A program made the translations under genes and the position numbers. Shown piece after piece: positions 1 to 37,408 of a stretch of DNA of 37,892 nt. Origin of the DNA: Escherichia phage T7; sequence record MZ375264.1; one strand, 5' to 3'. Under the pieces are notes generated by a model, which ran no database searches, was not told the DNA's origin, and saw nothing but the letters and a program-made list of their open reading frames with translations. How positions within the stretch are numbered: position 1 is the stretch's first letter; every line of letters starts with the position of its first letter.

Positions 1-141
1 TCTCACAGTGTACGGACCTAAAGTTCCCCCATAGGGGTACCTAAAGCCCAGCCAATCACCTAAAGTCAACCTTCGGTTGACCTTGAGGGTTCCCTAAGGG
101 TTTGTCTTTGGGTGTTACCTTGAGTGTCTCTCTGTGTCCCT
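1..141. repeat. TR-L: Left direct terminal repeat, 141 bp, identical to 37752-37892
   Basis: Exact identity of the first 141 nt with the last 141 nt of the window; begins TCTCACAGTGTACGGACCTAAAG, the T7 terminal redundancy. Confidence 0.95.
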
Positions 142-224
142 CCCTGTTACAGTCTCCTAAAGTATCCTCCTAAAGACGCCTTGTTGTTAGCCATAAAGTG
201 ATAACCTTTAATCATTGTCTTTAT
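142..224. repeat. Residual left-end array of CCTAAAG-type short direct repeats between the terminal repeat and phiOL
   Basis: Repeated CCTAAAG/CATAAAG heptamers visible at 147-178 and 191-197; in reference T7 this array is about 144 bp longer. Confidence 0.6.
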
Positions 225-247
225 TAATACAACTCACTATAGGGAGA
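225..247 (+). promoter_or_regulatory. phiOL: T7 RNA polymerase promoter phiOL (TAATACAACTCACTATAGGGAGA), +1 at 242
   Basis: 23-bp match to T7 promoter consensus with A at -11; position matches T7 phiOL (+1 at 405) after a 163-bp offset. Confidence 0.9.
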
Positions 248-2444: not shown

Positions 2445-5096
2445 ATGAACACGATTAACATCGCTAAGAACGACTTCTCTGACATCGAACTGGCTGCTAT
2501 CCCGTTCAACACTCTGGCTGACCATTACGGTGAGCGTTTAGCTCGCGAACAGTTGGCCCTTGAGCATGAGTCTTACGAGATGGGTGAAGCACGCTTCCGC
2601 AAGATGTTTGAGCGTCAACTTAAAGCTGGTGAGGTTGCGGATAACGCTGCCGCCAAGCCTCTCATCACTACCCTACTCCCTAAGATGATTGCACGCATCA
2701 ACGACTGGTTTGAGGAAGTGAAAGCTAAGCGCGGCAAGCGCCCGACAGCCTTCCAGTTCCTGCAAGAAATCAAGCCGGAAGCCGTAGCGTACATCACCAT
2801 TAAGACCACTCTGGCTTGCCTAACCAGTGCTGACAATACAACCGTTCAGGCTGCAGCAAGCGCAATCGGTCGGGCCATTGAGGACGAGGCTCGCTTCGGT
2901 CGTATCCGTGACCTTGAAGCTAAGCACTTCAAGAAAAACGTTGAGGAACAACTCAACAAGCGCGTAGGGCACGTCTACAAGAAAGCATTTATGCGAGTTG
3001 TCGAGGCTGACATGCTCTCTAAGGGTCTACTCGGTGGCGAGGCGTGGTCTTCGTGGCATAAGGAAGACTCTATTCATGTAGGAGTACGCTGCATCGAGAT
3101 GCTCATTGAGTCAACCGGAATGGTTAGCTTACACCGCCAAAATGCTGGCGTAGTAGGTCAAGACTCTGAGACTATCGAACTCGCACCTGAATACGCTGAG
3201 GCTATCGCAACCCGTGCAGGTGCGCTGGCTGGCATCTCTCCGATGTTCCAACCTTGCGTAGTTCCTCCTAAGCCGTGGACTGGCATTACTGGTGGTGGCT
3301 ATTGGGCTAACGGTCGTCGTCCTCTGGCGCTGGTGCGTACTCACAGTAAGAAAGCACTGATGCGCTACGAAGACGTTTACATGCCTGAGGTGTACAAAGC
3401 GATTAACATTGCGCAAAACACCGCATGGAAAATCAACAAGAAAGTCCTAGCGGTCGCCAACGTAATCACCAAGTGGAAGCATTGTCCGGTCGAGGACATC
3501 CCTGCGATTGAGCGTGAAGAACTCCCGATGAAACCGGAAGACATCGACATGAATCCTGAGGCTCTCACCGCGTGGAAACGTGCTGCCGCTGCTGTGTACC
3601 GCAAGGACAAGGCTCGCAAGTCTCGCCGTATCAGCCTTGAGTTCATGCTTGAGCAAGCCAATAAGTTTGCTAACCATAAGGCCATCTGGTTCCCTTACAA
3701 CATGGACTGGCGCGGTCGTGTTTACGCTGTGTCAATGTTCAACCCGCAAGGTAACGATATGACCAAAGGACTGCTTACGCTGGCGAAAGGTAAACCAATC
3801 GGTAAGGAAGGTTACTACTGGCTGAAAATCCACGGTGCAAACTGTGCGGGTGTCGATAAGGTTCCGTTCCCTGAGCGCATCAAGTTCATTGAGGAAAACC
3901 ACGAGAACATCATGGCTTGCGCTAAGTCTCCACTGGAGAACACTTGGTGGGCTGAGCAAGATTCTCCGTTCTGCTTCCTTGCGTTCTGCTTTGAGTACGC
4001 TGGGGTACAGCACCACGGCCTGAGCTATAACTGCTCCCTTCCGCTGGCGTTTGACGGGTCTTGCTCTGGCATCCAGCACTTCTCCGCGATGCTCCGAGAT
4101 GAGGTAGGTGGTCGCGCGGTTAACTTGCTTCCTAGTGAAACCGTTCAGGACATCTACGGGATTGTTGCTAAGAAAGTCAACGAGATTCTACAAGCAGACG
4201 CAATCAATGGGACCGATAACGAAGTAGTTACCGTGACCGATGAGAACACTGGTGAAATCTCTGAGAAAGTCAAGCTGGGCACTAAGGCACTGGCTGGTCA
4301 ATGGCTGGCTTACGGTGTTACTCGCAGTGTGACTAAGCGTTCAGTCATGACGCTGGCTTACGGGTCCAAAGAGTTCGGCTTCCGTCAACAAGTGCTGGAA
4401 GATACCATTCAGCCAGCTATTGATTCCGGCAAGGGTCTGATGTTCACTCAGCCGAATCAGGCTGCTGGATACATGGCTAAGCTGATTTGGGAATCTGTGA
4501 GCGTGACGGTGGTAGCTGCGGTTGAAGCAATGAACTGGCTTAAGTCTGCTGCTAAGCTGCTGGCTGCTGAGGTCAAAGATAAGAAGACTGGAGAGATTCT
4601 TCGCAAGCGTTGCGCTGTGCATTGGGTAACTCCTGATGGTTTCCCTGTGTGGCAGGAATACAAGAAGCCTATTCAGACGCGCTTGAACCTGATGTTCCTC
4701 GGTCAGTTCCGCTTACAGCCTACCATTAACACCAACAAAGATAGCGAGATTGATGCACACAAACAGGAGTCTGGTATCGCTCCTAACTTTGTACACAGCC
4801 AAGACGGTAGCCACCTTCGTAAGACTGTAGTGTGGGCACACGAGAAGTACGGAATCGAATCTTTTGCACTGATTCACGACTCCTTCGGTACCATTCCGGC
4901 TGACGCTGCGAACCTGTTCAAAGCAGTGCGCGAAACTATGGTTGACACATATGAGTCTTGTGATGTACTGGCTGATTTCTACGACCAGTTCGCTGACCAG
5001 TTGCACGAGTCTCAATTGGACAAAATGCCAGCACTTCCGGCTAAAGGTAACTTGAACCTCCGTGACATCTTAGAGTCGGACTTCGCGTTCGCGTAA
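2445..5096 (+). CDS. 1: Gene 1 T7 RNA polymerase, 883 aa
   Basis: ORF 2445-5096; catalytic D537 (AFDGSCSG) and H811/D812 (IHDSFG), Y639 (LAYGSKEF), specificity loop with R746, N748, R756, Q758 all present; ends FAFA. Confidence 0.98.
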   Translation: MNTINIAKNDFSDIELAAIPFNTLADHYGERLAREQLALEHESYEMGEARFRKMFERQLKAGEVADNAAAKPLITTLLPKMIARINDWFEEVKAKRGKRPTAFQFLQEIKPEAVAYITIKTTLACLTSADNTTVQAAASAIGRAIEDEARFGRIRDLEAKHFKKNVEEQLNKRVGHVYKKAFMRVVEADMLSKGLLGGEAWSSWHKEDSIHVGVRCIEMLIESTGMVSLHRQNAGVVGQDSETIELAPEYAEAIATRAGALAGISPMFQPCVVPPKPWTGITGGGYWANGRRPLALVRTHSKKALMRYEDVYMPEVYKAINIAQNTAWKINKKVLAVANVITKWKHCPVEDIPAIEREELPMKPEDIDMNPEALTAWKRAAAAVYRKDKARKSRRISLEFMLEQANKFANHKAIWFPYNMDWRGRVYAVSMFNPQGNDMTKGLLTLAKGKPIGKEGYYWLKIHGANCAGVDKVPFPERIKFIEENHENIMACAKSPLENTWWAEQDSPFCFLAFCFEYAGVQHHGLSYNCSLPLAFDGSCSGIQHFSAMLRDEVGGRAVNLLPSETVQDIYGIVAKKVNEILQADAINGTDNEVVTVTDENTGEISEKVKLGTKALAGQWLAYGVTRSVTKRSVMTLAYGSKEFGFRQQVLEDTIQPAIDSGKGLMFTQPNQAAGYMAKLIWESVSVTVVAAVEAMNWLKSAAKLLAAEVKDKKTGEILRKRCAVHWVTPDGFPVWQEYKKPIQTRLNLMFLGQFRLQPTINTNKDSEIDAHKQESGIAPNFVHSQDGSHLRKTVVWAHEKYGIESFALIHDSFGTIPADAANLFKAVRETMVDTYESCDVLADFYDQFADQLHESQLDKMPALPAKGNLNLRDILESDFAFA

Positions 5097-6878: not shown

Positions 6879-6901
6879 TTTTACGACTCACTAAAGGAGG
6901 T
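6879..6901 (+). promoter_or_regulatory. phi1.5: T7 promoter phi1.5 with altered upstream edge (TTTTACGACTCACTAAAGGAGG), +1 at 6896
   Basis: Core CGACTCACTAAAGGAGG intact, but positions -16 and -15 read TT instead of the consensus AA because the sequence joins directly to the gene 1.3/TE downstream region. Confidence 0.75.
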
Positions 6902-6908
6902 ACACACC

Positions 6909-7284: not shown

Positions 7285-7866
7285 TGGGACTGTTAGATGG
7301 TGAAGCCTGGGAAAAAGAAAACCCGCCAGTACAAGCAACTGGGTGTATAGCTTGCTTAGAGAAAGATGACCGTTATCCACACACCTGTAACAAAGGAGCT
7401 AACGATATGACCGAACGTGAACAAGAGATGATCATTAAGTTGATAGACAATAATGAAGGTCGCCCAGATGATTTGAATGGCTGCGGTATTCTCTGCTCCA
7501 ATGTCCCTTGCCACCTCTGCCCCGCAAATAACGATCAAAAGATAACCTTAGGTGAAATCCGAGCGATGGACCCACGTAAACCACATCTGAATAAACCTGA
7601 GGTAACTCCTACAGATGACCAGCCTTCCGCTGAGACAATCGAAGGTGTCACTAAGCCTTCCCACTACATGCTGTTTGACGACATTGAGGCTATCGAAGTG
7701 ATTGCTCGTTCAATGACCGTTGAGCAGTTCAAGGGATACTGCTTCGGTAACATCTTAAAGTACAGACTACGTGCTGGTAAGAAGTCAGAGTTAGCGTACT
7801 TAGAGAAAGACCTAGCGAAAGCAGACTTCTATAAAGAACTCTTTGAGAAACATAAGGATAAATGTT

Positions 7867-8974: not shown

Positions 8975-9394
8975 GTGGAACTGCGGGAGAAAATCCTTGA
9001 GCGAATCAAGGTGACTTCCTCTGGGTGTTGGGAGTGGCAGGGCGCTACGAACAATAAAGGGTACGGGCAGGTGTGGTGCAGCAATACCGGAAAGGTTGTC
9101 TACTGTCATCGCGTAATGTCTAATGCTCCGAAAGGTTCTACCGTCCTGCACTCCTGTGATAATCCATTATGTTGTAACCCTGAACACCGTTCCATAGGAA
9201 CTCCAAAAGAGAACTCCACTGACATGGTAAATAAGGGTCGCTCACACAAGGGGTATAAACTTTCAGACGAAGACGTAATGGCAATCATGGAGTCCAGCGA
9301 GTCCAATGTATCCTTAGCTCGCACCTATGGTGTCTCCCAACAGACTATTTGTGATATACGCAAAGGGAGGCGACATGGCAGGTTACGGCGCTAA
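8975..9394 (+). CDS. 2.8: Gene 2.8, HNH endonuclease-like protein, 139 aa, GTG start
   Basis: ORF 8975-9394; motif HSCDNPLCCNPEHRSIGTPKENSTDMVNKGR shared with gene 7.7. Confidence 0.85.
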   Translation: MELREKILERIKVTSSGCWEWQGATNNKGYGQVWCSNTGKVVYCHRVMSNAPKGSTVLHSCDNPLCCNPEHRSIGTPKENSTDMVNKGRSHKGYKLSDEDVMAIMESSESNVSLARTYGVSQQTICDIRKGRRHGRLRR

Positions 9395-10280: not shown

Positions 10281-10303
10281 TAATTGAACTCACTAAAGGG
10301 AGA
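10281..10303 (+). promoter_or_regulatory. phi3.8: T7 promoter phi3.8 (TAATTGAACTCACTAAAGGGAGA), +1 at 10298
   Basis: Promoter-like 23-mer; position matches T7 phi3.8. Confidence 0.9.
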
Positions 10304-12864: not shown

Positions 12865-14979
12865 ATGATCGTTTCTGACATCGAAGCTAACGCCCTCTTA
12901 GAGAGCGTCACTAAGTTCCACTGCGGGGTTATCTACGACTACTCCACCGCTGAGTACGTAAGCTACCGTCCGAGTGACTTCGGTGCGTATCTGGATGCGC
13001 TGGAAGCCGAGGTTGCACGAGGCGGTCTTATTGTGTTCCACAACGGTCACAAGTATGACGTTCCTGCATTGACCAAACTGGCAAAGTTGCAATTGAACCG
13101 AGAGTTCCACCTTCCTCGTGAGAACTGTATTGACACCCTTGTGTTGTCACGTTTGATTCATTTCAACCTCAAGGACACCGATATGGGTCTTCTGCGTTCC
13201 GGCAAGTTGCCCGGAAAACGCTTTGGGTCTCACGCTTTGGAGGCGTGGGGTTATCGCTTAGGCGAGATGAAGGGTGAATACAAAGACGACTTTAAGCGTA
13301 TGCTTGAAGAGCAGGGTGAAGAATACGTTGACGGAATGGAGTGGTGGAACTTCAACGAAGAGATGATGGACTATAACGTTCAGGACGTTGTGGTAACTAA
13401 AGCTCTCCTTGAGAAGCTACTCTCTGACAAACATTACTTCCCTCCTGAGATTGACTTTACGGACGTAGGATACACTACGTTCTGGTCAGAATCCCTTGAG
13501 GCCGTTGACATTGAACATCGTGCTGCATGGCTGCTCGCTAAACAAGAGCGCAACGGGTTCCCGTTTGACACAAAAGCAATCGAAGAGTTGTACGTAGAGT
13601 TAGCTGCTCGCCGCTCTGAGTTGCTCCGTAAATTGACCGAAACGTTCGGCTCGTGGTATCAGCCTAAAGGTGGCACTGAGATGTTCTGCCATCCGCGAAC
13701 AGGTAAGCCACTACCTAAATACCCTCGCATTAAGACACCTAAAGTTGGTGGTATCTTTAAGAAGCCTAAGAACAAGGCACAGCGAGAAGGCCGTGAGCCT
13801 TGCGAACTTGATACCCGCGAGTACGTTGCTGGTGCTCCTTACACCCCAGTTGAACATGTTGTGTTTAACCCTTCGTCTCGTGACCACATTCAGAAGAAAC
13901 TCCAAGAGGCTGGGTGGGTCCCGACCAAGTACACCGATAAGGGTGCTCCTGTGGTGGACGATGAGGTACTCGAAGGAGTACGTGTAGATGACCCTGAGAA
14001 GCAAGCCGCTATCGACCTCATTAAAGAGTACTTGATGATTCAGAAGCGAATCGGACAGTCTGCTGAGGGAGACAAAGCATGGCTTCGTTATGTTGCTGAG
14101 GATGGTAAGATTCATGGTTCTGTTAACCCTAATGGAGCAGTTACGGGTCGTGCGACCCATGCGTTCCCAAACCTTGCGCAAATTCCGGGTGTACGTTCTC
14201 CTTATGGAGAGCAGTGTCGCGCTGCTTTTGGCGCTGAGCACCATTTGGATGGGATAACTGGTAAGCCTTGGGTTCAGGCTGGCATCGACGCATCCGGTCT
14301 TGAGCTACGCTGCTTGGCTCACTTCATGGCTCGCTTTGATAACGGCGAGTACGCTCACGAGATTCTTAACGGCGACATCCACACTAAGAACCAGATAGCT
14401 GCTGAACTACCTACCCGAGATAACGCTAAGACGTTCATCTATGGGTTCCTCTATGGTGCTGGTGATGAGAAGATTGGACAGATTGTTGGTGCTGGTAAAG
14501 AGCGCGGTAAGGAACTCAAGAAGAAATTCCTTGAGAACACCCCCGCGATTGCAGCACTCCGCGAGTCTATCCAACAGACACTTGTCGAGTCCTCTCAATG
14601 GGTAGCTGGTGAGCAACAAGTCAAGTGGAAACGCCGCTGGATTAAAGGTCTGGATGGTCGTAAGGTACACGTTCGTAGTCCTCACGCTGCCTTGAATACC
14701 CTACTGCAATCTGCTGGTGCTCTCATCTGCAAACTGTGGATTATCAAGACCGAAGAGATGCTCGTAGAGAAAGGCTTGAAGCATGGCTGGGATGGGGACT
14801 TTGCGTACATGGCATGGGTACATGATGAAATCCAAGTAGGCTGCCGTACCGAAGAGATTGCTCAGGTGGTCATTGAGACCGCACAAGAAGCGATGCGCTG
14901 GGTTGGAGACCACTGGAACTTCCGGTGTCTTCTGGATACCGAAGGTAAGATGGGTCCTAATTGGGCGATTTGCCACTGA
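12865..14979 (+). CDS. 5: Gene 5 DNA polymerase, 704 aa
   Basis: ATG 12865 ([15 protein letters not shown]..., exonuclease D5/E7) inside ORF-track entry 12718-14979; family A polymerase. Confidence 0.98.
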
Positions 14980-15691: not shown

Positions 15692-16580
15692 CCTTAAACA
15701 ATTCTATGAGTTACGTGAAGGCTGCGACGACAAGGGTATCCTTGTGATGGACGGCGACTGGCTGGTCTTCCAAGCTATGAGTGCTGCTGAGTTTGATGCC
15801 TCTTGGGAGGAAGAGATTTGGCACCGATGCTGTGACCACGCTAAGGCCCGTCAGATTCTTGAGGATTCCATTAAGTCCTACGAGACCCGTAAGAAGGCTT
15901 GGGCAGGTGCTCCAATTGTCCTTGCGTTCACCGATAGTGTTAACTGGCGTAAAGAACTGGTTGACCCGAACTATAAGGCTAACCGTAAGGCCGTGAAGAA
16001 ACCTGTAGGGTACTTTGAGTTCCTTGATGCTCTCTTTGAGCGCGAAGAGTTCTATTGCATCCGTGAGCCTATGCTTGAGGGTGATGACGTTATGGGAGTT
16101 ATTGCTTCCAATCCGTCTGCCTTCGGTGCTCGTAAGGCTGTAATCATCTCTTGCGATAAGGACTTTAAGACCATCCCTAACTGTGACTTCCTGTGGTGTA
16201 CCACTGGTAACATCCTGACTCAGACCGAAGAGTCCGCTGACTGGTGGCACCTCTTCCAGACCATCAAGGGTGACATCACTGATGGTTACTCAGGGATTGC
16301 TGGATGGGGTGATACCGCCGAGGACTTCTTGAATAACCCGTTCATAACCGAGCCTAAAACGTCTGTGCTTAAGTCCGGTAAGAACAAAGGCCAAGAGGTT
16401 ACTAAATGGGTTAAACGCGACCCTGAGCCTCATGAGACGCTTTGGGACTGCATTAAGTCCATTGGCGCGAAGGCTGGTATGACCGAAGAGGATATTATCA
16501 AGCAGGGCCAAATGGCTCGAATCCTACGGTTCAACGAGTACAACTTTATTGACAAGGAGATTTACCTGTGGAGACCGTAG
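15678..16580 (+). CDS. 6: Gene 6 5'-3' exonuclease, 300 aa
   Basis: ORF 15678-16580. Confidence 0.97.
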   Translation: MALLDLKQFYELREGCDDKGILVMDGDWLVFQAMSAAEFDASWEEEIWHRCCDHAKARQILEDSIKSYETRKKAWAGAPIVLAFTDSVNWRKELVDPNYKANRKAVKKPVGYFEFLDALFEREEFYCIREPMLEGDDVMGVIASNPSAFGARKAVIISCDKDFKTIPNCDFLWCTTGNILTQTEESADWWHLFQTIKGDITDGYSGIAGWGDTAEDFLNNPFITEPKTSVLKSGKNKGQEVTKWVKRDPEPHETLWDCIKSIGAKAGMTEEDIIKQGQMARILRFNEYNFIDKEIYLWRP

Positions 16581-16681
16581 CGTATATTGGTCTGGGTCTT
16601 TGTGTTCTCGGAGTGTGCCTCATTTCGTGGGGCCTTTGGGACTTAGCCAGAATAATCAAGTCGTTACACGACACTAAGTGA
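16568..16681 (+). CDS. 6.3: Gene 6.3, 37 aa, GTG start
   Basis: GTG 16568 to TGA 16681, hydrophobic peptide; position matches T7 gene 6.3. Confidence 0.5.
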   Translation: METVAYIGLGLCVLGVCLISWGLWDLARIIKSLHDTK

Positions 16682-16701
16682 TAAACTCAAGGTCCCTAAA
16701 T

Positions 16702-16724
16702 TAATACGACTCACTATAGGGAGA
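16702..16724 (+). promoter_or_regulatory. phi6.5: T7 class III promoter phi6.5, exact consensus TAATACGACTCACTATAGGGAGA, +1 at 16719
   Basis: Exact 23-bp consensus. Confidence 0.97.
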
Positions 16725-16778
16725 TAGGGGCCTTTACGATTATTACTTTAAGATTTAACTCTAAGAGGAATCTTTATT

Positions 16779-17033
16779 ATGTTAACACCTATTAACCAAT
16801 TACTTAAGAACCCTAACGATATTCCAGATGTACCTCGTGCAACCGCTGAGTATCTACAGGTTCGATTCAACTATGCGTACCTCGAAGCGTCTGGTCATAT
16901 AGGACTTATGCGTGCTAATGGTTGTAGTGAGGCCCACATCTTGGGTTTCATTCAGGGCCTACAGTATGCCTCTAACGTCATTGACGAGATTGAGTTACGC
17001 AAGGAACAACTAAGAGATGATGGGGAGGATTGA
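16779..17033 (+). CDS. 6.5: Gene 6.5, 84 aa
   Basis: ORF 16779-17033. Confidence 0.9.
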
Positions 17034-18414: not shown

Positions 18415-20024
18415 TGGCTGAGAAACGAACAGGACTTGCGGAGGATGGCGCAAAGTCTGTCTATGAGCGTTTAAAGAACGACCGTGCTCCCTATGAGACA
18501 CGCGCTCAGAATTGCGCTCAATATACCATCCCATCATTGTTCCCTAAGGACTCCGATAACGCCTCTACAGATTATCAAACTCCGTGGCAAGCCGTGGGCG
18601 CTCGTGGTCTGAACAATCTAGCCTCTAAGCTCATGCTGGCTCTATTCCCTATGCAGACTTGGATGCGACTTACTATATCTGAATATGAAGCAAAGCAGTT
18701 ACTGAGCGACCCCGATGGACTCGCTAAGGTCGATGAGGGCCTCTCGATGGTAGAGCGTATCATCATGAACTACATTGAGTCTAACAGTTACCGCGTGACT
18801 CTCTTTGAGGCTCTCAAACAGTTAGTCGTAGCTGGTAACGTCCTGCTGTACCTACCGGAACCGGAAGGGTCAAACTATAATCCCATGAAGCTGTACCGAT
18901 TGTCTTCTTATGTGGTCCAACGAGACGCATTCGGCAACGTTCTGCAAATGGTGACTCGTGACCAGATAGCTTTTGGTGCTCTCCCTGAGGACATCCGTAA
19001 GGCTGTAGAAGGTCAAGGTGGTGAGAAGAAAGCTGATGAGACAATCGACGTGTACACTCACATCTATCTGGATGAGGACTCAGGTGAATACCTCCGATAC
19101 GAAGAGGTCGAGGGTATGGAAGTCCAAGGCTCCGATGGGACTTATCCTAAAGAGGCTTGCCCATACATCCCGATTCGGATGGTCAGACTAGATGGTGAAT
19201 CCTACGGTCGTTCGTACATTGAGGAATACTTAGGTGACTTACGGTCCCTTGAAAATCTCCAAGAGGCTATCGTCAAGATGTCCATGATTAGCTCTAAGGT
19301 TATCGGCTTAGTGAATCCTGCTGGTATCACCCAGCCACGCCGACTGACCAAAGCTCAGACTGGTGACTTCGTTACTGGTCGTCCAGAAGACATCTCGTTC
19401 CTCCAACTGGAGAAGCAAGCAGACTTTACTGTAGCTAAAGCCGTAAGTGACGCTATCGAGGCTCGCCTTTCGTTTGCCTTTATGTTGAACTCTGCGGTTC
19501 AGCGTACAGGTGAACGTGTGACCGCCGAAGAGATTCGGTATGTAGCTTCTGAACTTGAAGATACTTTAGGTGGTGTCTACTCTATCCTTTCTCAAGAATT
19601 ACAATTGCCTCTGGTACGAGTGCTCTTGAAGCAACTACAAGCCACGCAACAGATTCCTGAGTTACCTAAGGAAGCCGTAGAGCCAACCATTAGTACAGGT
19701 CTGGAAGCAATTGGTCGAGGACAAGACCTTGATAAGCTGGAGCGGTGTGTCACTGCGTGGGCTGCACTGGCACCTATGCGGGACGACCCTGATATTAACC
19801 TTGCGATGATTAAGTTACGTATTGCCAACGCTATCGGTATTGACACTTCTGGTATTCTACTCACCGAAGAACAGAAGCAACAGAAGATGGCCCAACAGTC
19901 TATGCAAATGGGTATGGATAATGGTGCTGCTGCGCTGGCTCAAGGTATGGCTGCACAAGCTACAGCTTCACCTGAGGCTATGGCTGCTGCCGCTGATTCC
20001 GTAGGTTTACAGCCGGGAATTTAA
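18414..20024 (+). CDS. 8: Gene 8 head-tail connector (portal) protein, 536 aa
   Basis: ATG 18414 overlapping the 7.7 stop (TAATG); ORF-track entry 18399-20024. Confidence 0.97.
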   Translation: MAEKRTGLAEDGAKSVYERLKNDRAPYETRAQNCAQYTIPSLFPKDSDNASTDYQTPWQAVGARGLNNLASKLMLALFPMQTWMRLTISEYEAKQLLSDPDGLAKVDEGLSMVERIIMNYIESNSYRVTLFEALKQLVVAGNVLLYLPEPEGSNYNPMKLYRLSSYVVQRDAFGNVLQMVTRDQIAFGALPEDIRKAVEGQGGEKKADETIDVYTHIYLDEDSGEYLRYEEVEGMEVQGSDGTYPKEACPYIPIRMVRLDGESYGRSYIEEYLGDLRSLENLQEAIVKMSMISSKVIGLVNPAGITQPRRLTKAQTGDFVTGRPEDISFLQLEKQADFTVAKAVSDAIEARLSFAFMLNSAVQRTGERVTAEEIRYVASELEDTLGGVYSILSQELQLPLVRVLLKQLQATQQIPELPKEAVEPTISTGLEAIGRGQDLDKLERCVTAWAALAPMRDDPDINLAMIKLRIANAIGIDTSGILLTEEQKQQKMAQQSMQMGMDNGAAALAQGMAAQATASPEAMAAAADSVGLQPGI

Positions 20025-20044
20025 TACGACTCACTATAGGGAGA
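20022..20044 (+). promoter_or_regulatory. phi9: T7 class III promoter phi9, exact consensus, +1 at 20039
   Basis: Exact 23-bp consensus overlapping the gene 8 stop. Confidence 0.97.
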
Positions 20045-21060: not shown

Positions 21061-21083
21061 TAATACGACTCACTATATGGAGA
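21061..21083 (+). promoter_or_regulatory. phi10: T7 class III promoter phi10 with T instead of G at +1 (TAATACGACTCACTATATGGAGA)
   Basis: Positions -17 to -1 match the consensus; +1 (21078) is T; downstream leader CCACAACGGTTTCCCTCTAGAAATAATTTTGTTTAACTTTAAGAAGGAGATATACAT is the canonical gene 10 leader. Confidence 0.9.
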
Positions 21084-25430: not shown

Positions 25431-25453
25431 TAATACGACTCACTATAGGGAGA
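25431..25453 (+). promoter_or_regulatory. phi13: T7 class III promoter phi13, exact consensus, +1 at 25448
   Basis: Exact 23-bp consensus. Confidence 0.97.
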
Positions 25454-28768: not shown

Positions 28769-31700
28769 ATGGATAAGTACGATAAGAACGTACCAAGTGA
28801 TTATGATGGTCTGTTCCAAAAGGCTGCTGATGCCAACGGGGTCTCTTATGACCTTTTACGTAAAGTCGCTTGGACAGAATCACGATTTGTGCCTACAGCA
28901 AAATCTAAGACTGGACCATTAGGCATGATGCAATTTACCAAGGCAACCGCTAAGGCCCTCGGTCTGCGAGTTACCGATGGTCCAGACGACGACCGACTGA
29001 ACCCTGAGTTAGCTATTAATGCTGCCGCTAAGCAACTTGCAGGTCTGGTAGGGAAGTTTGATGGCGATGAACTCAAAGCTGCCCTTGCGTACAACCAAGG
29101 CGAGGGACGCTTGGGTAATCCACAACTTGAGGCGTACTCTAAGGGAGACTTCGCATCAATCTCTGAGGAGGGACGTAACTACATGCGTAACCTTCTGGAT
29201 GTTGCTAAGTCACCTATGGCTGGACAGTTGGAAACTTTTGGTGGCATAACCCCAAAGGGTAAAGGCATTCCGGCTGAGGTAGGATTGGCTGGAATTGGTC
29301 ACAAGCAGAAAGTAACACAGGAACTTCCTGAGTCCACAAGTTTTGACGTTAAGGGTATCGAACAGGAGGCTACGGCGAAACCATTCGCCAAGGACTTTTG
29401 GGAGACCCACGGAGAAACACTTGACGAGTACAACAGTCGTTCAACCTTCTTCGGATTCAAAAATGCTGCCGAAGCTGAACTCTCCAACTCAGTCGCTGGG
29501 ATGGCTTTCCGTGCTGGTCGTCTCGATAATGGTTTTGATGTGTTTAAAGACACCATTACGCCGACTCGCTGGAACTCTCACATCTGGACTCCAGAGGAGT
29601 TAGAGAAGATTCGAACAGAGGTTAAGAACCCTGCGTACATCAACGTTGTAACTGGTGGTTCCCCTGAGAACCTCGATGACCTCATTAAATTGGCTAACGA
29701 GAACTTTGAGAATGACTCCCGCGCTGCCGAGGCTGGCCTAGGTGCCAAACTGAGTGCTGGTATTATTGGTGCTGGTGTGGACCCGCTTAGCTATGTTCCT
29801 ATGGTCGGTGTCACTGGTAAGGGCTTTAAGTTAATCAATAAGGCTCTTGTAGTTGGTGCCGAAAGTGCTGCTCTGAACGTTGCATCCGAAGGTCTCCGTA
29901 CCTCCGTAGCTGGTGGTGACGCAGACTATGCGGGTGCTGCCTTAGGTGGCTTTGTGTTTGGCGCAGGCATGTCTGCAATCAGTGACGCTGTAGCTGCTGG
30001 ACTGAAACGCAGTAAACCAGAAGCTGAGTTCGACAATGAGTTCATCGGTCCTATGATGCGATTGGAAGCCCGTGAGACAGCACGAAACGCCAACTCTGCG
30101 GACCTCTCTCGGATGAACACTGAGAACATGAAGTTTGAAGGTGAACATAATGGTGTCCCTTATGAGGACTTACCAACAGAGAGAGGTGCCGTGGTGTTAC
30201 ATGATGGCTCCGTTCTAAGTGCAAGCAACCCAATCAACCCTAAGACTCTAAAAGAGTTCTCCGAGGTTGACCCTGAGAAGGCTGCGCGAGGAATCAAACT
30301 GGCTGGGTTCACCGAGATTGGCTTGAAGACCTTGGGGTCTGACGATGCTGACATCCGTAGAGTGGCTATCGACCTCGTTCGCTCTCCTACTGGTATGCAG
30401 TCTGGTGCCTCAGGTAAGTTCGGTGCAACAGCTTCTGACATCCATGAGAGACTTCATGGTACTGACCAGCGTACTTATAATGACTTGTACAAAGCAATGT
30501 CTGACGCTATGAAAGACCCTGAGTTCTCTACTGGCGGCGCTAAGATGTCCCGTGAAGAAACTCGATACACTATCTACCGTAGAGCGGCACTAGCTATTGA
30601 GCGTCCAGAACTACAGAAGGCACTCACTCCGTCTGAGAGAATCGTTATGGACATCATTAAGCGTCACTTTGACACCAAGCGTGAACTTATGGAAAACCCA
30701 GCAATATTCGGTAACACAAAGGCTGTGAGTATCTTCCCTGAGAGTCGCCACAAAGGTACTTACGTTCCTCACGTATATGACCGTCATGCCAAGGCGCTGA
30801 TGATTCAACGCTACGGTGCCGAAGGTTTGCAGGAAGGGATTGCCCGCTCATGGATGAACAGCTACGTCTCCAGACCTGAGGTCAAGGCCAGAGTCGATGA
30901 GATGCTTAAGGAATTACACGGGGTGAAGGAAGTAACACCAGAGATGGTAGAGAAGTACGCTATGGATAAGGCTTATGGTATCTCCCACTCAGACCAGTTC
31001 ACCAACAGTTCCATAATAGAAGAGAACATTGAGGGCTTAGTAGGTATCGAGAATAACTCATTCCTTGAGGCACGTAACTTGTTTGATTCGGACCTATCCA
31101 TCACTATGCCAGACGGACAGCAATTCTCAGTGAATGACCTAAGGGACTTCGATATGTTCCGCATCATGCCAGCGTATGACCGCTGTGTCAATGGTGACAT
31201 CGCCATCATGGGGTCTACTGGTAAAACCACTAAGGAACTTAAGGATGAGATTTTGGCTCTCAAAGCGAAAGCTGAGGGAGACGGTAAGAAGACTGGCGAG
31301 GTACATGCTTTAATGGATACCGTTAAGATTCTTACTGGTCGTGCTAGACGCAATCAGGACACTGTGTGGGAAACCTCACTGCGTGCCATCAATGACCTAG
31401 GGTTCTTCGCTAAGAACGCCTACATGGGTGCTCAGAACATTACGGAGATTGCTGGGATGATTGTCACTGGTAACGTTCGTGCTCTAGGGCATGGTATCCC
31501 AATTCTGCGTGATACACTCTACAAGTCTAAACCAGTTTCAGCTAAGGAACTCAAGGAACTCCATGCGTCTCTGTTCGGGAAGGAGGTGGACCAGTTGATT
31601 CGGCCTAAACGTGCTGACATTGTGCAGCGCCTAAGGGAAGCAACTGATACCGGACCTGCCGTGGCGAACATCGTAGGGACCTTGAAGTATTCAACACAGG

Positions 31701-32725
31701 AACTGGCTGCTCGCTCTCCGTGGACTAAGCTACTGAACGGAACCACTAACTACCTTCTGGATGCTGCGCGTCAAGGTATGCTTGGGGATGTTATTAGTGC
31801 CACCCTAACAGGTAAGACTACCCGCTGGGAGAAAGAAGGCTTCCTTCGTGGTGCCTCCGTAACTCCTGAGCAGATGGCTGGCATCAAGTCTCTCATCAAG
31901 GAACATATGGTACGCGGTGAGGACGGGAAGTTTACCGTTAAGGACAAGCAAGCGTTCTCTATGGACCCACGGGCTATGGACTTATGGAGACTGGCTGACA
32001 AGGTAGCTGATGAGGCAATGCTGCGTCCACATAAGGTGTCCTTACAGGATTCCCATGCGTTCGGAGCACTAGGTAAGATGGTTATGCAGTTTAAGTCTTT
32101 CACTATCAAGTCCCTTAACTCTAAGTTCCTGCGAACCTTCTATGATGGATACAAGAACAACCGAGCGATTGACGCTGCGCTGAGCATCATCACCTCTATG
32201 GGTCTCGCTGGTGGTTTCTATGCTATGGCTGCACACGTCAGAGCATACGCTCTGCCTAAGGAGAAACGTAAGGAGTACTTGGAGCGTGCACTGGACCCAA
32301 CCATGATTGCCCACGCTGCGTTATCTCGTAGTTCTCAATTGGGTGTTCCTTTGGCTATGGTTGACCTAGTTGGTGGTGTTTTAGGGTTCGAGTCCTCCAA
32401 GATGGCTCGCTCTACGATTCTACCTAAGGACACCGTGAAGGAACGTGACCCAAACAAACCGTACACCTCTAGAGAGGTAATGGGCGCTATGGGTTCAAAC
32501 CTTCTGGAACAGATGCCTTCGGCTGGCTTTGTGGCTAACGTAGGGGCTACCTTAATGAATGCTGCTGGCGTGGTCAACTCACCTAATAAAGCAACCGAGC
32601 AGGACTTCATGACTGGTCTTATGAACTCCACAAAAGAGTTAGTACCGAACGACCCATTGACTCAACAGCTTGTGTTGAAGATTTATGAGGCGAACGGTGT
32701 TAACTTGAGGGAGCGTAGGAAATAA
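28769..32725 (+). CDS. 16: Gene 16 internal core protein with N-terminal lytic transglycosylase domain, 1318 aa
   Basis: ORF 28769-32725; N-terminal SLT-like motif (WTESRF ... GPLGMMQF). Confidence 0.97.
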   Translation: MDKYDKNVPSDYDGLFQKAADANGVSYDLLRKVAWTESRFVPTAKSKTGPLGMMQFTKATAKALGLRVTDGPDDDRLNPELAINAAAKQLAGLVGKFDGDELKAALAYNQGEGRLGNPQLEAYSKGDFASISEEGRNYMRNLLDVAKSPMAGQLETFGGITPKGKGIPAEVGLAGIGHKQKVTQELPESTSFDVKGIEQEATAKPFAKDFWETHGETLDEYNSRSTFFGFKNAAEAELSNSVAGMAFRAGRLDNGFDVFKDTITPTRWNSHIWTPEELEKIRTEVKNPAYINVVTGGSPENLDDLIKLANENFENDSRAAEAGLGAKLSAGIIGAGVDPLSYVPMVGVTGKGFKLINKALVVGAESAALNVASEGLRTSVAGGDADYAGAALGGFVFGAGMSAISDAVAAGLKRSKPEAEFDNEFIGPMMRLEARETARNANSADLSRMNTENMKFEGEHNGVPYEDLPTERGAVVLHDGSVLSASNPINPKTLKEFSEVDPEKAARGIKLAGFTEIGLKTLGSDDADIRRVAIDLVRSPTGMQSGASGKFGATASDIHERLHGTDQRTYNDLYKAMSDAMKDPEFSTGGAKMSREETRYTIYRRAALAIERPELQKALTPSERIVMDIIKRHFDTKRELMENPAIFGNTKAVSIFPESRHKGTYVPHVYDRHAKALMIQRYGAEGLQEGIARSWMNSYVSRPEVKARVDEMLKELHGVKEVTPEMVEKYAMDKAYGISHSDQFTNSSIIEENIEGLVGIENNSFLEARNLFDSDLSITMPDGQQFSVNDLRDFDMFRIMPAYDRCVNGDIAIMGSTGKTTKELKDEILALKAKAEGDGKKTGEVHALMDTVKILTGRARRNQDTVWETSLRAINDLGFFAKNAYMGAQNITEIAGMIVTGNVRALGHGIPILRDTLYKSKPVSAKELKELHASLFGKEVDQLIRPKRADIVQRLREATDTGPAVANIVGTLKYSTQELAARSPWTKLLNGTTNYLLDAARQGMLGDVISATLTGKTTRWEKEGFLRGASVTPEQMAGIKSLIKEHMVRGEDGKFTVKDKQAFSMDPRAMDLWRLADKVADEAMLRPHKVSLQDSHAFGALGKMVMQFKSFTIKSLNSKFLRTFYDGYKNNRAIDAALSIITSMGLAGGFYAMAAHVRAYALPKEKRKEYLERALDPTMIAHAALSRSSQLGVPLAMVDLVGGVLGFESSKMARSTILPKDTVKERDPNKPYTSREVMGAMGSNLLEQMPSAGFVANVGATLMNAAGVVNSPNKATEQDFMTGLMNSTKELVPNDPLTQQLVLKIYEANGVNLRERRK

Positions 32726-32745
32726 TACAACTCACTATAGGGAGA
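32723..32745 (+). promoter_or_regulatory. phi17: T7 class III promoter phi17 with A instead of G at -11 (TAATACAACTCACTATAGGGAGA), +1 at 32740
   Basis: 23-mer matches the consensus except position 32729; overlaps the gene 16 stop. Confidence 0.85.
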
Positions 32746-32797
32746 GGCGAAATAATCTTCTCCCTGTAGTCTCTTAGATTTACTTTAAGGAGGTCAA

Positions 32798-34459
32798 ATG
32801 GCTAACGTAATTAAAACCGTTTTGACTTACCAGTTAGATGGCTCCAATCGTGATTTTAATATCCCGTTTGAGTATCTAGCCCGTAAGTTCGTAGTGGTAA
32901 CTCTTATTGGTGTAGACCGAAAGGTCCTTACGATTAATACAGACTATCGCTTTGCTACACGTACTACTATCTCTCTGACAAAGGCTTGGGGTCCAGCCGA
33001 TGGCTACACGACCATCGAGTTACGTCGAGTAACCTCCACTACCGACCGATTGGTTGACTTTACGGATGGTTCAATCCTCCGCGCGTATGACCTTAACGTC
33101 GCTCAGATTCAAACGATGCACGTAGCGGAAGAGGCCCGTGACCTCACTACGGATACTATCGGTGTCAATAACGATGGTCACTTGGATGCTCGTGGTCGTC
33201 GAATTGTGAACCTAGCGAACGCCGTGGATGACCGCGATGCTGTTCCGTTTGGTCAACTAAAGACCATGAACCAGAACTCATGGCAAGCACGTAATGAAGC
33301 CTTACAGTTCCGTAATGAGGCTGAGACTTTCAGAAACCAAGCGGAGGGCTTTAAGAACGAGTCCAGTACCAACGCTACGAACACAAAGCAGTGGCGCGAT
33401 GAGACCAAGGGTTTCCGAGACGAAGCCAAGCGGTTCGAGAATACGGCTGGTCAATACGCTACATCTGCTGGGAACTCTGCTTCCGCTGCGCATCAATCTG
33501 AGGTAAACGCTGAGAACTCTGCCACAGCATCCGCTAACTCTGCTCATTTGGCAGAACAGCAAGCAGACCGTGCGGAACGTGAGGCAGACAAGCTGGAAAA
33601 TTACAATGGATTGGCTGGTGCAATTGATAAGGTAGATGGAACCAATGTGTACTGGAAAGGAAATATTCACGCTAACGGGCGCCTTTACATGACCACAAAC
33701 GGTTTTGACTGTGGCCAGTATCAACAGTTCTTTGGTGGTGTCACTAATCGTTACTCTGTCATGGAGTGGGGAGATGAGAACGGATGGCTGATGTATGTTC
33801 AACGTAGAGAGTGGACAACAGCGATAGGCGGTAACATCCAGTTAGTAGTAAACGGACAGATCATCACCCAAGGTGGAGCCATGACCGGTCAGCTAAAATT
33901 GCAGAATGGGCATGTTCTTCAATTAGAGTCCGCATCCGACAAGGCGCACTATATTCTATCTAAAGATGGTAACAGGAATAACTGGTACATTGGTAGAGGG
34001 TCAGATAACAACAATGACTGTACCTTCCACTCCTATGTACATGGTACGACCTTAACACTCAAGCAGGACTATGCAGTAGTTAACAAACACTTCCACGTAG
34101 GTCAGGCCGTTGTGGCCACTGATGGTAATATTCAAGGTACTAAGTGGGGAGGTAAATGGCTGGATGCTTACCTACGTGACAGCTTCGTTGCGAAGTCCAA
34201 GGCGTGGACTCAGGTGTGGTCTGGTAGTGCTGGCGGTGGGGTAAGTGTGACTGTTTCACAGGATCTCCGCTTCCGCAATATCTGGATTAAGTGTGCCAAC
34301 AACTCTTGGAACTTCTTCCGTACTGGCCCCGATGGAATCTACTTCATAGCCTCTGATGGTGGATGGTTACGATTCCAAATACACTCCAACGGTCTCGGAT
34401 TCAAGAATATTGCAGACAGTCGTTCAGTACCTAATGCAATCATGGTGGAGAACGAGTAA
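32798..34459 (+). CDS. 17: Gene 17 tail fibre protein, 553 aa
   Basis: ORF 32798-34459. Confidence 0.97.
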   Translation: MANVIKTVLTYQLDGSNRDFNIPFEYLARKFVVVTLIGVDRKVLTINTDYRFATRTTISLTKAWGPADGYTTIELRRVTSTTDRLVDFTDGSILRAYDLNVAQIQTMHVAEEARDLTTDTIGVNNDGHLDARGRRIVNLANAVDDRDAVPFGQLKTMNQNSWQARNEALQFRNEAETFRNQAEGFKNESSTNATNTKQWRDETKGFRDEAKRFENTAGQYATSAGNSASAAHQSEVNAENSATASANSAHLAEQQADRAEREADKLENYNGLAGAIDKVDGTNVYWKGNIHANGRLYMTTNGFDCGQYQQFFGGVTNRYSVMEWGDENGWLMYVQRREWTTAIGGNIQLVVNGQIITQGGAMTGQLKLQNGHVLQLESASDKAHYILSKDGNRNNWYIGRGSDNNNDCTFHSYVHGTTLTLKQDYAVVNKHFHVGQAVVATDGNIQGTKWGGKWLDAYLRDSFVAKSKAWTQVWSGSAGGGVSVTVSQDLRFRNIWIKCANNSWNFFRTGPDGIYFIASDGGWLRFQIHSNGLGFKNIADSRSVPNAIMVENE

Positions 34460-34517
34460 TTGGTAAATCACAAGGAAAGACGTGTAGTCCACGGATGGAC
34501 TCTCAAGGAGGTACAAG

Positions 34518-34721
34518 GTGCTATCATTAGACTTTAACAACGAATTGATTAAGGCTGCTCCAATTGTTGGGACGGGTGTAGCAGATGTTAGTGCTCGACT
34601 GTTCTTTGGGTTAAGCCTTAACGAATGGTTCTACGTTGCTGCTATCGCCTACACAGTGGTTCAGATTGGTGCCAAGGTAGTCGATAAGATGATTGACTGG
34701 AAGAAAGCCAATAAGGAGTGA
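34518..34721 (+). CDS. 17.5: Gene 17.5 holin, 67 aa, GTG start
   Basis: ORF 34518-34721, one hydrophobic segment and a charged C-terminus. Confidence 0.85.
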   Translation: MLSLDFNNELIKAAPIVGTGVADVSARLFFGLSLNEWFYVAAIAYTVVQIGAKVVDKMIDWKKANKE

Positions 34722-37385: not shown

Positions 37386-37408
37386 TAATACGACTCACTA
37401 TAGGGAGA
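37386..37408 (+). promoter_or_regulatory. phiOR: T7 promoter phiOR, exact consensus, +1 at 37403
   Basis: Exact 23-bp consensus near the right end. Confidence 0.97.

Follow-up and report, generated by a model that had tools for sequence, protein, structure and literature searches.

A derived A at position -11 of the phi17 promoter in a genome-reduced T7 clone is part of a recurrent pattern of -11 changes among near-identical T7 promoters

The closest described counterpart of the element analyzed here is phi17 of wild-type T7 (Dunn and Studier 1983; V01146 34566), the promoter from which T7 RNA polymerase transcribes the tail-fibre gene 17. Our subject is the phi17 promoter of sequence record MZ375264.1 from Escherichia phage T7, whose full length of 37,892 nucleotides is referred to below as the window. 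The two promoters occupy the same locus with the same flanks, share 22 of 23 bases and lie 57 nt before the gene 17 ATG, and the CTC (-9 to -7), TATA (-4 to -1) and GGGAGA start region of the wild type are intact in the window. Unlike wild-type phi17, the promoter in the window has A and not G at -11, a base pair which, together with -10, is contacted by residue N748 of the polymerase according to literature cited in PMC5937735.

A at -11 is native to T7 phiOL and phi3.8, and the mutant phi17 resembles both in this base. Its 23-mer equals that of the evolved phiOL in the window as well as the natural phiOL of three T7-like contigs in IMG/VR. phiOL lies at the left end of the genome and is described as weakly used (PMC6171733), whereas phi17 precedes a late structural gene. 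Promoter changes have also been described in evolved T7 lines of the Bull laboratory, carrying either a T3 RNA polymerase replacement or the G78-KIRV RNA polymerase, in which they cluster in -11 to -9 of a few promoters (PMC6171733). The clones considered here are similar to those lines insofar as changes occurred in parallel and phiOL and phiOR are among the promoters affected. However, the promoter changes of the Bull-laboratory lines arose only after an alteration of polymerase specificity and restore recognition, whereas the window retains the wild-type specificity loop and its phi17 moves away from consensus. What those studies describe are point substitutions and duplications of promoters; the transfer of an allele from one promoter to another is not among them (PMC6171733).

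On the plus strand, window positions 32723-32745 read TAATACAACTCACTATAGGGAGA, numbered -17 to +6. The only mismatch to the 23-bp T7 consensus, TAATACGACTCACTATAGGGAGA, is at the seventh base, -11 (window 32729). An original prediction made from the letters of the window had pointed to this A and stated that the class III promoters of T7 have G at -11, and both statements are borne out. In the reference T7 V01146, against which all differences were called, base 34555 is G, phi17 is exact consensus like the other class III promoters, and the A is thus derived here. The locus aligns between genes 16 and 17 with T7 34549-34571, with identical flanks. A scan of the window that tolerated up to 3 mismatches to the consensus gave 10 sites, and 100 shuffles gave 0. 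The TAA stop codon of gene 16 (32723-32725) forms the first three bases of the promoter; the variant base lies past it and has no coding effect, and the change yields neither a sigma-70-like promoter nor a terminator. No perfect match to window 32500-33000 exists among 50,697 phage records, the best T7 records listed each having one mismatch, and phi17 with A at -11 was found in no other record of that collection.

Class III promoters and phiOR are set apart from class II promoters by exact consensus, from which phi17 departs here through the A at -11. By strict sequence it would be classed as a phiOL-like near-consensus variant and no longer as an exact class III promoter. It shares with the phiOL type an A at -11 within an otherwise consensus recognition region, but differs from it in location, starting at 32723 between genes 16 and 17 and not at the left end upstream of the early region. 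That the phiOL and phi17 23-mers of the window are the same, as originally noted, is confirmed. Wild-type T7 phiOL is TAATACAACTCACTATAAGGAGA, with A at +1 in addition to A at -11, and the two 23-mers became identical because phiOL gained +1 A>G and phi17 gained -11 G>A. Judged against the reference sequences, the identity is not due to shared ancestry of the two 23-mers. In IMG/VR, TAATACAACTCACTATAGGGAGA occurs 3 times, each time at the phiOL position of a T7-like contig and never at a late-promoter position, whereas the exact consensus 23-mer has roughly 100 copies (a tally of the positions listed). By these occurrences, A at -11 is a conserved trait of phiOL, and G at +1 is one of its natural alleles. 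Natural polymorphism as the source of the phi17 allele was rejected, given the lack of an exact match in the phage records and the phiOL location of all three IMG/VR copies.

Although 99.8-99.9% identical to T7, the window departs from the wild type: it is 2 kb shorter, has about 25 substitutions relative to V01146, and represents a genome-reduced, laboratory-evolved derivative. Both its deletion architecture and its nearest records, "Mutant Escherichia phage T7 clone T7_5t1", "T7_30L", "T7_130L" and similar, match the clone family of CiPGr, a Cas9/lambda-Red iterative genome reduction (NAR 2022, PMC9825161). In that study T7 went through about 300 transfers on E. coli MG1655 with Cas9, lambda-Red, a guide library and 50-bp homology arms, and clone names of the same style (T7_300L, T7_100_t2) are used (PMC9825161). 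The paper mentions "unexpected" point mutations, and promoters are not discussed in its main text.

To place the phi17 change among its sister clones, all 17 promoters were tabulated in 13 genomes, and mutant alleles were searched for over the whole phage collection. At least five independent -11 G>A events (phi9, phi10, phi13, phi17 and phiOR), together with the reverse change in phiOL, are present in one experimental population (clones are given in the table). Outside the CiPGr clones, none of these alleles was found among about 116 T7 records, nor were -11 alleles present in natural T7-like contigs or in roughly 50 T7 records of other origin, which include other evolved lines. Six of the approximately 130 distinct single-nucleotide polymorphisms (SNPs) in the 13 genomes fall on the 17 "-11" sites where about 0.06 would be expected (Poisson P about 4e-11), a figure that is indicative only since the fully compared genomes are enriched for carriers; the collection-wide searches are without that bias. 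All five G>A events are within the 6 consensus promoters out of 15 with G at -11 (P = 0.002), and none is seen at the nine class II promoters with that base. Within the window, the promoters (391 nt, 1% of the genome) hold 3 of the 25 SNPs (P = 0.002). The recurrence is far beyond chance, and the phi17 change is no random hit. Toggling of -11 at six of seven near-identical promoters is absent from the main text of the CiPGr paper, and is as such an unreported pattern.

The original prediction held that phi17 stands out in a genome where phi6.5, phi9, phi13 and phiOR are exact consensus. These four are indeed exact, and phi17 does deviate from consensus among late promoters, but it is not alone in being odd: phi10 has acquired +1 G>T, which makes it the one T7 promoter with T at +1. 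As phi10 is the strongest of the late promoters, this is where initiation would probably be reduced or displaced.

Some narrower accounts of the pattern were discarded. T7_5t1 and T7_130L gave the impression that phiOL and a second promoter had traded their -11 bases, which does not hold, as 8 of 10 clones with phiOL -11G lack -11A elsewhere and the overlap of 2 clones compares to about 1.9 expected by chance. The impression of exactly one -11A per genome was an ascertainment artefact, carriers making up about 12 of about 64 clones, and a restriction to promoters downstream of the Tphi terminator is ruled out by the phi9 and phi10 carriers.

What the change does to phi17 can be approached through the polymerase. 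The same genome encodes a cognate T7 RNA polymerase with a matching specificity loop: the N748 codon (AAC, 4686-4688) is unchanged, as had been stated beforehand, and residues 739-770 are as in T7. The two substitutions in gene 1, V137A (window 2854) and Q184R (window 2995), are in the N-terminal domain; Q184R is found in all siblings examined but T7_10S, and V137A is common among later siblings. The original prediction implied that N748 would read the promoter less well, for which support is weak, as A at -11 is well tolerated by T7 RNA polymerase in published assays. When positions -12 to -7 were randomized and enriched in vitro, CAACTC (-11A) made up 11 of 43 clones and the wild-type CGACTC 3 of 43, with 18 of 43 for all NAACTC and 9 of 43 for all NGACTC (our own count over the published clone table, PMC6395800 Table S3). 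In vivo, the pair of wild-type polymerase and TAACT was classed as highly active, whereas the pair with CGACT was uncloneable owing to toxicity (PMC11880802), which may point to a somewhat lower strength of -12T/-11A relative to CGACT. Among promoter variants of high activity, 93% keep G at -11 (PMC5937735 S1 Table). The only terminator that T7 has for its RNA polymerase is leaky, so that transcripts begun farther upstream also cover the genes beyond it, and the phage survives even the knock-out of a promoter (PMC6068830). Consequently, phi17 with A at -11 should still direct transcription of gene 17 and its rightward neighbors by T7 RNA polymerase, because phiOL and phi3.8 use this base natively, the N748 loop is unchanged, and gene 17 also receives read-through. 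The loss of strength would probably be modest at most, and any effect on tail-fibre expression mild and buffered.

As the cause of the recurrent -11A we infer, tentatively and at something short of an even call, a templated exchange of short patches among the promoters, in which the evolved phiOL is the donor. We prefer it to parallel selection; the two can also act together. According to this hypothesis phiOL would first become TAATACAACTCACTATAGGGAGA by +1 A>G, seen from transfer 30, and would then differ from the six consensus promoters at -11 alone. Annealing of one copy to another, or template switching, could subsequently move the -11 base in either direction, favored by T7's own recombination, Cas9 breaks and the lambda-Red functions of the host, and nearly neutral -11A alleles might linger at low to intermediate frequency and be caught in single-plaque isolates. 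Several lines of evidence are consistent with such exchange. Every -11 change recreates a 17-19 nt context present at another promoter, as compared to 1 in 600 random SNPs. The A at -11 is the sole base that a phiOL(+1G) donor can transfer, and it accounts for 5 of the 7 changes seen in consensus promoters. As in ectopic gene conversion or templated mutagenesis of short dispersed repeats, the allele pre-exists in a paralogous copy, here phiOL(+1G), flanked by identity from -17 to -12 and from -10 to +7, and changes recur in both directions at the single differing position and are restricted to the copies nearest the donor. The toggling is confined to the one experiment that added Cas9 breaks and lambda-Red. 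Moreover, near-neutrality of -11A is supported by the published enrichment counts and the activity on TAACT, and the allele persists without sweeping, unlike phiOL +1G and phi10 +1T; at phi13, T7_130L, 150S and 220S carry it, but T7_250L, 270L and 300L.2 do not.

Templated exchange should nevertheless be viewed with caution, since a number of observations weigh against it. Unlike usual ectopic gene conversion, the homology available is far shorter (6-7 nt plus 16-17 nt), and the 6-7 nt of identity to the left of -11 are very short for recombination. According to the Bull laboratory, T7 promoters hardly ever recombine ectopically unless homology flanks them (PMC6068830). The shared 23-24 nt hold no second difference that could serve as a co-convertible flanking marker, and -18 and +8 are unconverted. 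Commoner donor alleles of class II promoters (e.g. -2A) were never copied into consensus promoters, phiOL -11G shows no reciprocal linkage with -11A elsewhere, and among 12 dispersed non-promoter one-mismatch repeat pairs, a low-power test, T7 235 alone toggled. The phi9 -6 A>G and phi10 +1 G>T changes have no template anywhere, and thus point mutation with selection or hitch-hiking also acts on promoters. Finally, phage populations are very large, and ordinary mutation supply suffices if the allele is even weakly beneficial.

The main competing explanation is parallel positive selection of ordinary point mutations, which we regard as possible but rather doubtful. A slightly weaker or phiOL-like class III promoter would be mildly beneficial in a genome-reduced background in which the concatemer-junction (CJ) pause site is lost, the polymerase carries Q184R and often V137A, phiOL is strengthened and phi10 weakened. 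The -11 G>A transition would be an accessible, affinity-lowering and non-lethal step, taken in a parallel soft sweep in which clonal interference blocks fixation. Large phage populations supply every single-base change at all times, and the promoters are strongly enriched for mutations, as seen above for the window, untemplated ones included (phi10 +1 G>T in about 34 records, phi9 -6 A>G in 2 clones). Other transcription signals were recurrently mutated as well, namely the CJ pause signal, with four different outcomes, the presumed A3 -35 box, T7 235, and the polymerase at Q184R and V137A. The phi10 +1T, phiOL +1G, CJ and Q184R changes make it clear that selection acts on promoters and other transcription signals of these lines. 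The CiPGr paper reports Ka/Ks >1 and infers selection on most point mutations (PMC9825161), and the retention of G at -11 in high-activity variants (PMC5937735), along with natural late promoters being without -11A, indicates that the base is not strictly neutral. On the other hand, over more than 150 transfers no -11A allele nears fixation, and little or no activity is lost in vitro (PMC6395800). Selection would be expected to bring up other mild substitutions too (-17 to -12, +4 to +6), yet those observed are mostly the base that phiOL can donate. The five promoters serve different gene sets, for which a common benefit is hard to specify, and the reverse change in phiOL requires a separate selective story.

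Two further explanations fare worse. The phi17 allele is a singleton seen in the window only, as would be the case for a neutral mutation that arose by chance, or for a mistake made in sequencing or assembling this one record. But the number of changes at -11 sites greatly exceeds the random expectation given above, phi13 -11A was inherited across seven clones of successive transfers, which is not artefact-like, and the -18 flank base is 7 nt from -11 so that reads or k-mers of at least 8 nt fix the locus and mis-assignment of phiOL reads is implausible. Chance or error is therefore very improbable. Escape of the G>A mutant from a Cas9 guide of the CiPGr spacer library is, in our view, more improbable still. 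The CiPGr authors ascribe 23.5% of T7 point mutations to spacer or protospacer-adjacent motif (PAM) regions (PMC9825161), and three NGG protospacers span 32729, at PAM-proximal positions 10, 11 and 16. However, these protospacers consist of the promoter core common to five other consensus promoters, four of which are still exact while phi10 is changed only at +1, and a guide cutting the phi17 core would still cut several other sites. Spacers were designed inside genes, and the site is intergenic between genes 16 and 17, both kept in every clone examined. In addition, phiOL +1 A>G makes a PAM and destroys none.

If templated exchange is the cause, the 23-bp promoters would, on a Cas9/lambda-Red host, behave as a small multigene family trading single bases between copies, an idea that we consider possible but hold with some doubt. 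The one base separating phiOL from consensus would then pass to phi9, phi10, phi13, phi17 or phiOR, and could also return.

Further changes touch transcription signals elsewhere in the genome. Just to the right of the terminal repeat, at window 141-147 (T7 161-167), ATCTGTT has become CCCTGTT. We take this motif to be the CJ class II pause signal of the polymerase. From transfer 30 onwards it is altered in every sibling examined, T7_10S being the exception with an intact motif, and four forms occur (ACCTGTT, ACCTGTA, CTCTGTT and CCCTGTT); this recurrence makes it stand out more than the phi17 change does. At window 554 (T7 717) an A>G substitution turns TTGACA into TTGGCA; the hexamer precedes the annotated start of host promoter A3 (T7 750) by about 33 nt and is presumably the A3 -35 box, and its change is private to the window among the genomes compared. 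T7 235, which is deleted in the window, is 11 nt away from T7 224, where the leftward host promoter A0 is annotated to start; T7 235 is changed T>A in seven clones, making one repeat unit identical to its neighbor, and by an untemplated T>C in T7_80S.

Among the remaining promoters, phi1.1A has -17 C>T in T7_300L.2, which is compatible with promoter exchange or with selection. The gene 1.4 deletion removes -17 to -15 of phi1.5 (window 6879-6904), which now starts TTTTACGACTC..., and the shortened promoter is found in all siblings examined but T7_10S. Coding changes include K214E in gene 17 relative to V01146, a nonsense mutation, S56*, in gene 3.8 (window 10509, T7 11391) common to T7_5t1 and T7_130L, and an adjacent double substitution at codon 72 of gene 2.8 (window 9189-9190).

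Table. Promoters, genes and deletions of the window, and promoter alleles in the sister clones.
Feature	Window position	Strand	T7 position	Remark
phi17, T7 RNA polymerase class III promoter of the tail-fibre gene	32723..32745	+	34549-34571	22/23 consensus matches; orthologous to the T7 interval
Variant base, -11 G>A	32729	+	34555	non-coding, 4 nt past gene 16 stop
Inferred transcription start, +1 G of phi17	32740	+	34566	unchanged; by homology to T7 34566, annotated "T7 promoter phi17" in V01146
Gene 16, internal virion protein D	28769..32725	+	30595-34551	offset 1826
Gene 17, tail fibre	32798..34459	+		first gene downstream of phi17; ATG 32798, MANV...
Gene 1, T7 RNA polymerase	2445..5096	+		differs from T7 only by V137A, Q184R
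phiOL	225..247	+		native -11A (231) and derived +1 A>G (242); 23-mer identical to mutant phi17
phi3.8	10281..10303	+		TAATTGAACTCACTAAAGGGAGA; unchanged; besides phiOL the sole T7 promoter with native -11A
phi6.5	16702..16724	+		exact consensus; sole consensus promoter without -11A in any sibling
phi9	20022..20044	+		exact consensus here
phi10, capsid-gene promoter	21061..21083	+		+1 G>T at 21078, TAATACGACTCACTATATGGAGA
phi13	25431..25453	+		exact consensus here
phiOR	37386..37408	+		exact consensus here
Small left-end deletion	~98		99-116	
Small left-end deletion	~169-175		about 195-331	in left-end repeat array
Deletion, most of genes 0.4-0.6	~1189		1353-1903	
Deletion, gene 1.4	junction 6881/6882		7608-7763	exact
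Deletion, most of 4.3	~12468		13353-13547	
Deletion, gene 4.7	junction 12846/12847		13927-14334	exact
Deletion, most of 5.3	junction 14994/14995		16483-16820	
Deletion, most of 19.5 and downstream	~37600		39429-39608	
Allele phi13 -11 G>A				seven clones (T7_130L, 150S, 220S and four others)
Allele phiOR -11 G>A				T7_130S, T7_5t1
Allele phi9 -11 G>A				T7_300L.2
Allele phi10 -11 G>A				T7_250L, on +1T background
Allele phi17 -11 G>A				MZ375264.1 (window) only
Allele phi6.5 -11 G>A				never seen
Allele phiOL -11 A>G				ten clones
Allele phiOL +1 A>G				all numbered-transfer clones from T7_30L on, T7_5t1 and the window; not T7_10S, T7_5t2
Allele phi10 +1 G>T				about 34 records, inferred from one-mismatch matches
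Allele phi9 -6 A>G				T7_5t1, T7_5t2
Allele phi1.1A -17 C>T				T7_300L.2 (MZ375294); toward consensus

In conclusion, the phi17 change taken by itself is probably an ordinary, mild allele of a very well-known promoter. For T7 promoter engineering it adds the rule that late promoters tolerate A at -11 in viable phage. The toggling of -11, side by side with the repeated destruction of the CJ pause signal, raises the question of whether T7 promoters are kept alike or diversified via copy exchange or via selection mediated by the polymerase. If templated exchange is true, these clones would provide direct evidence of concerted evolution of phage promoters by micro-conversion, with identity of as little as 6 + 16 nt, possibly acting jointly with selection for a rewired late transcription once the CJ pause signal is lost.

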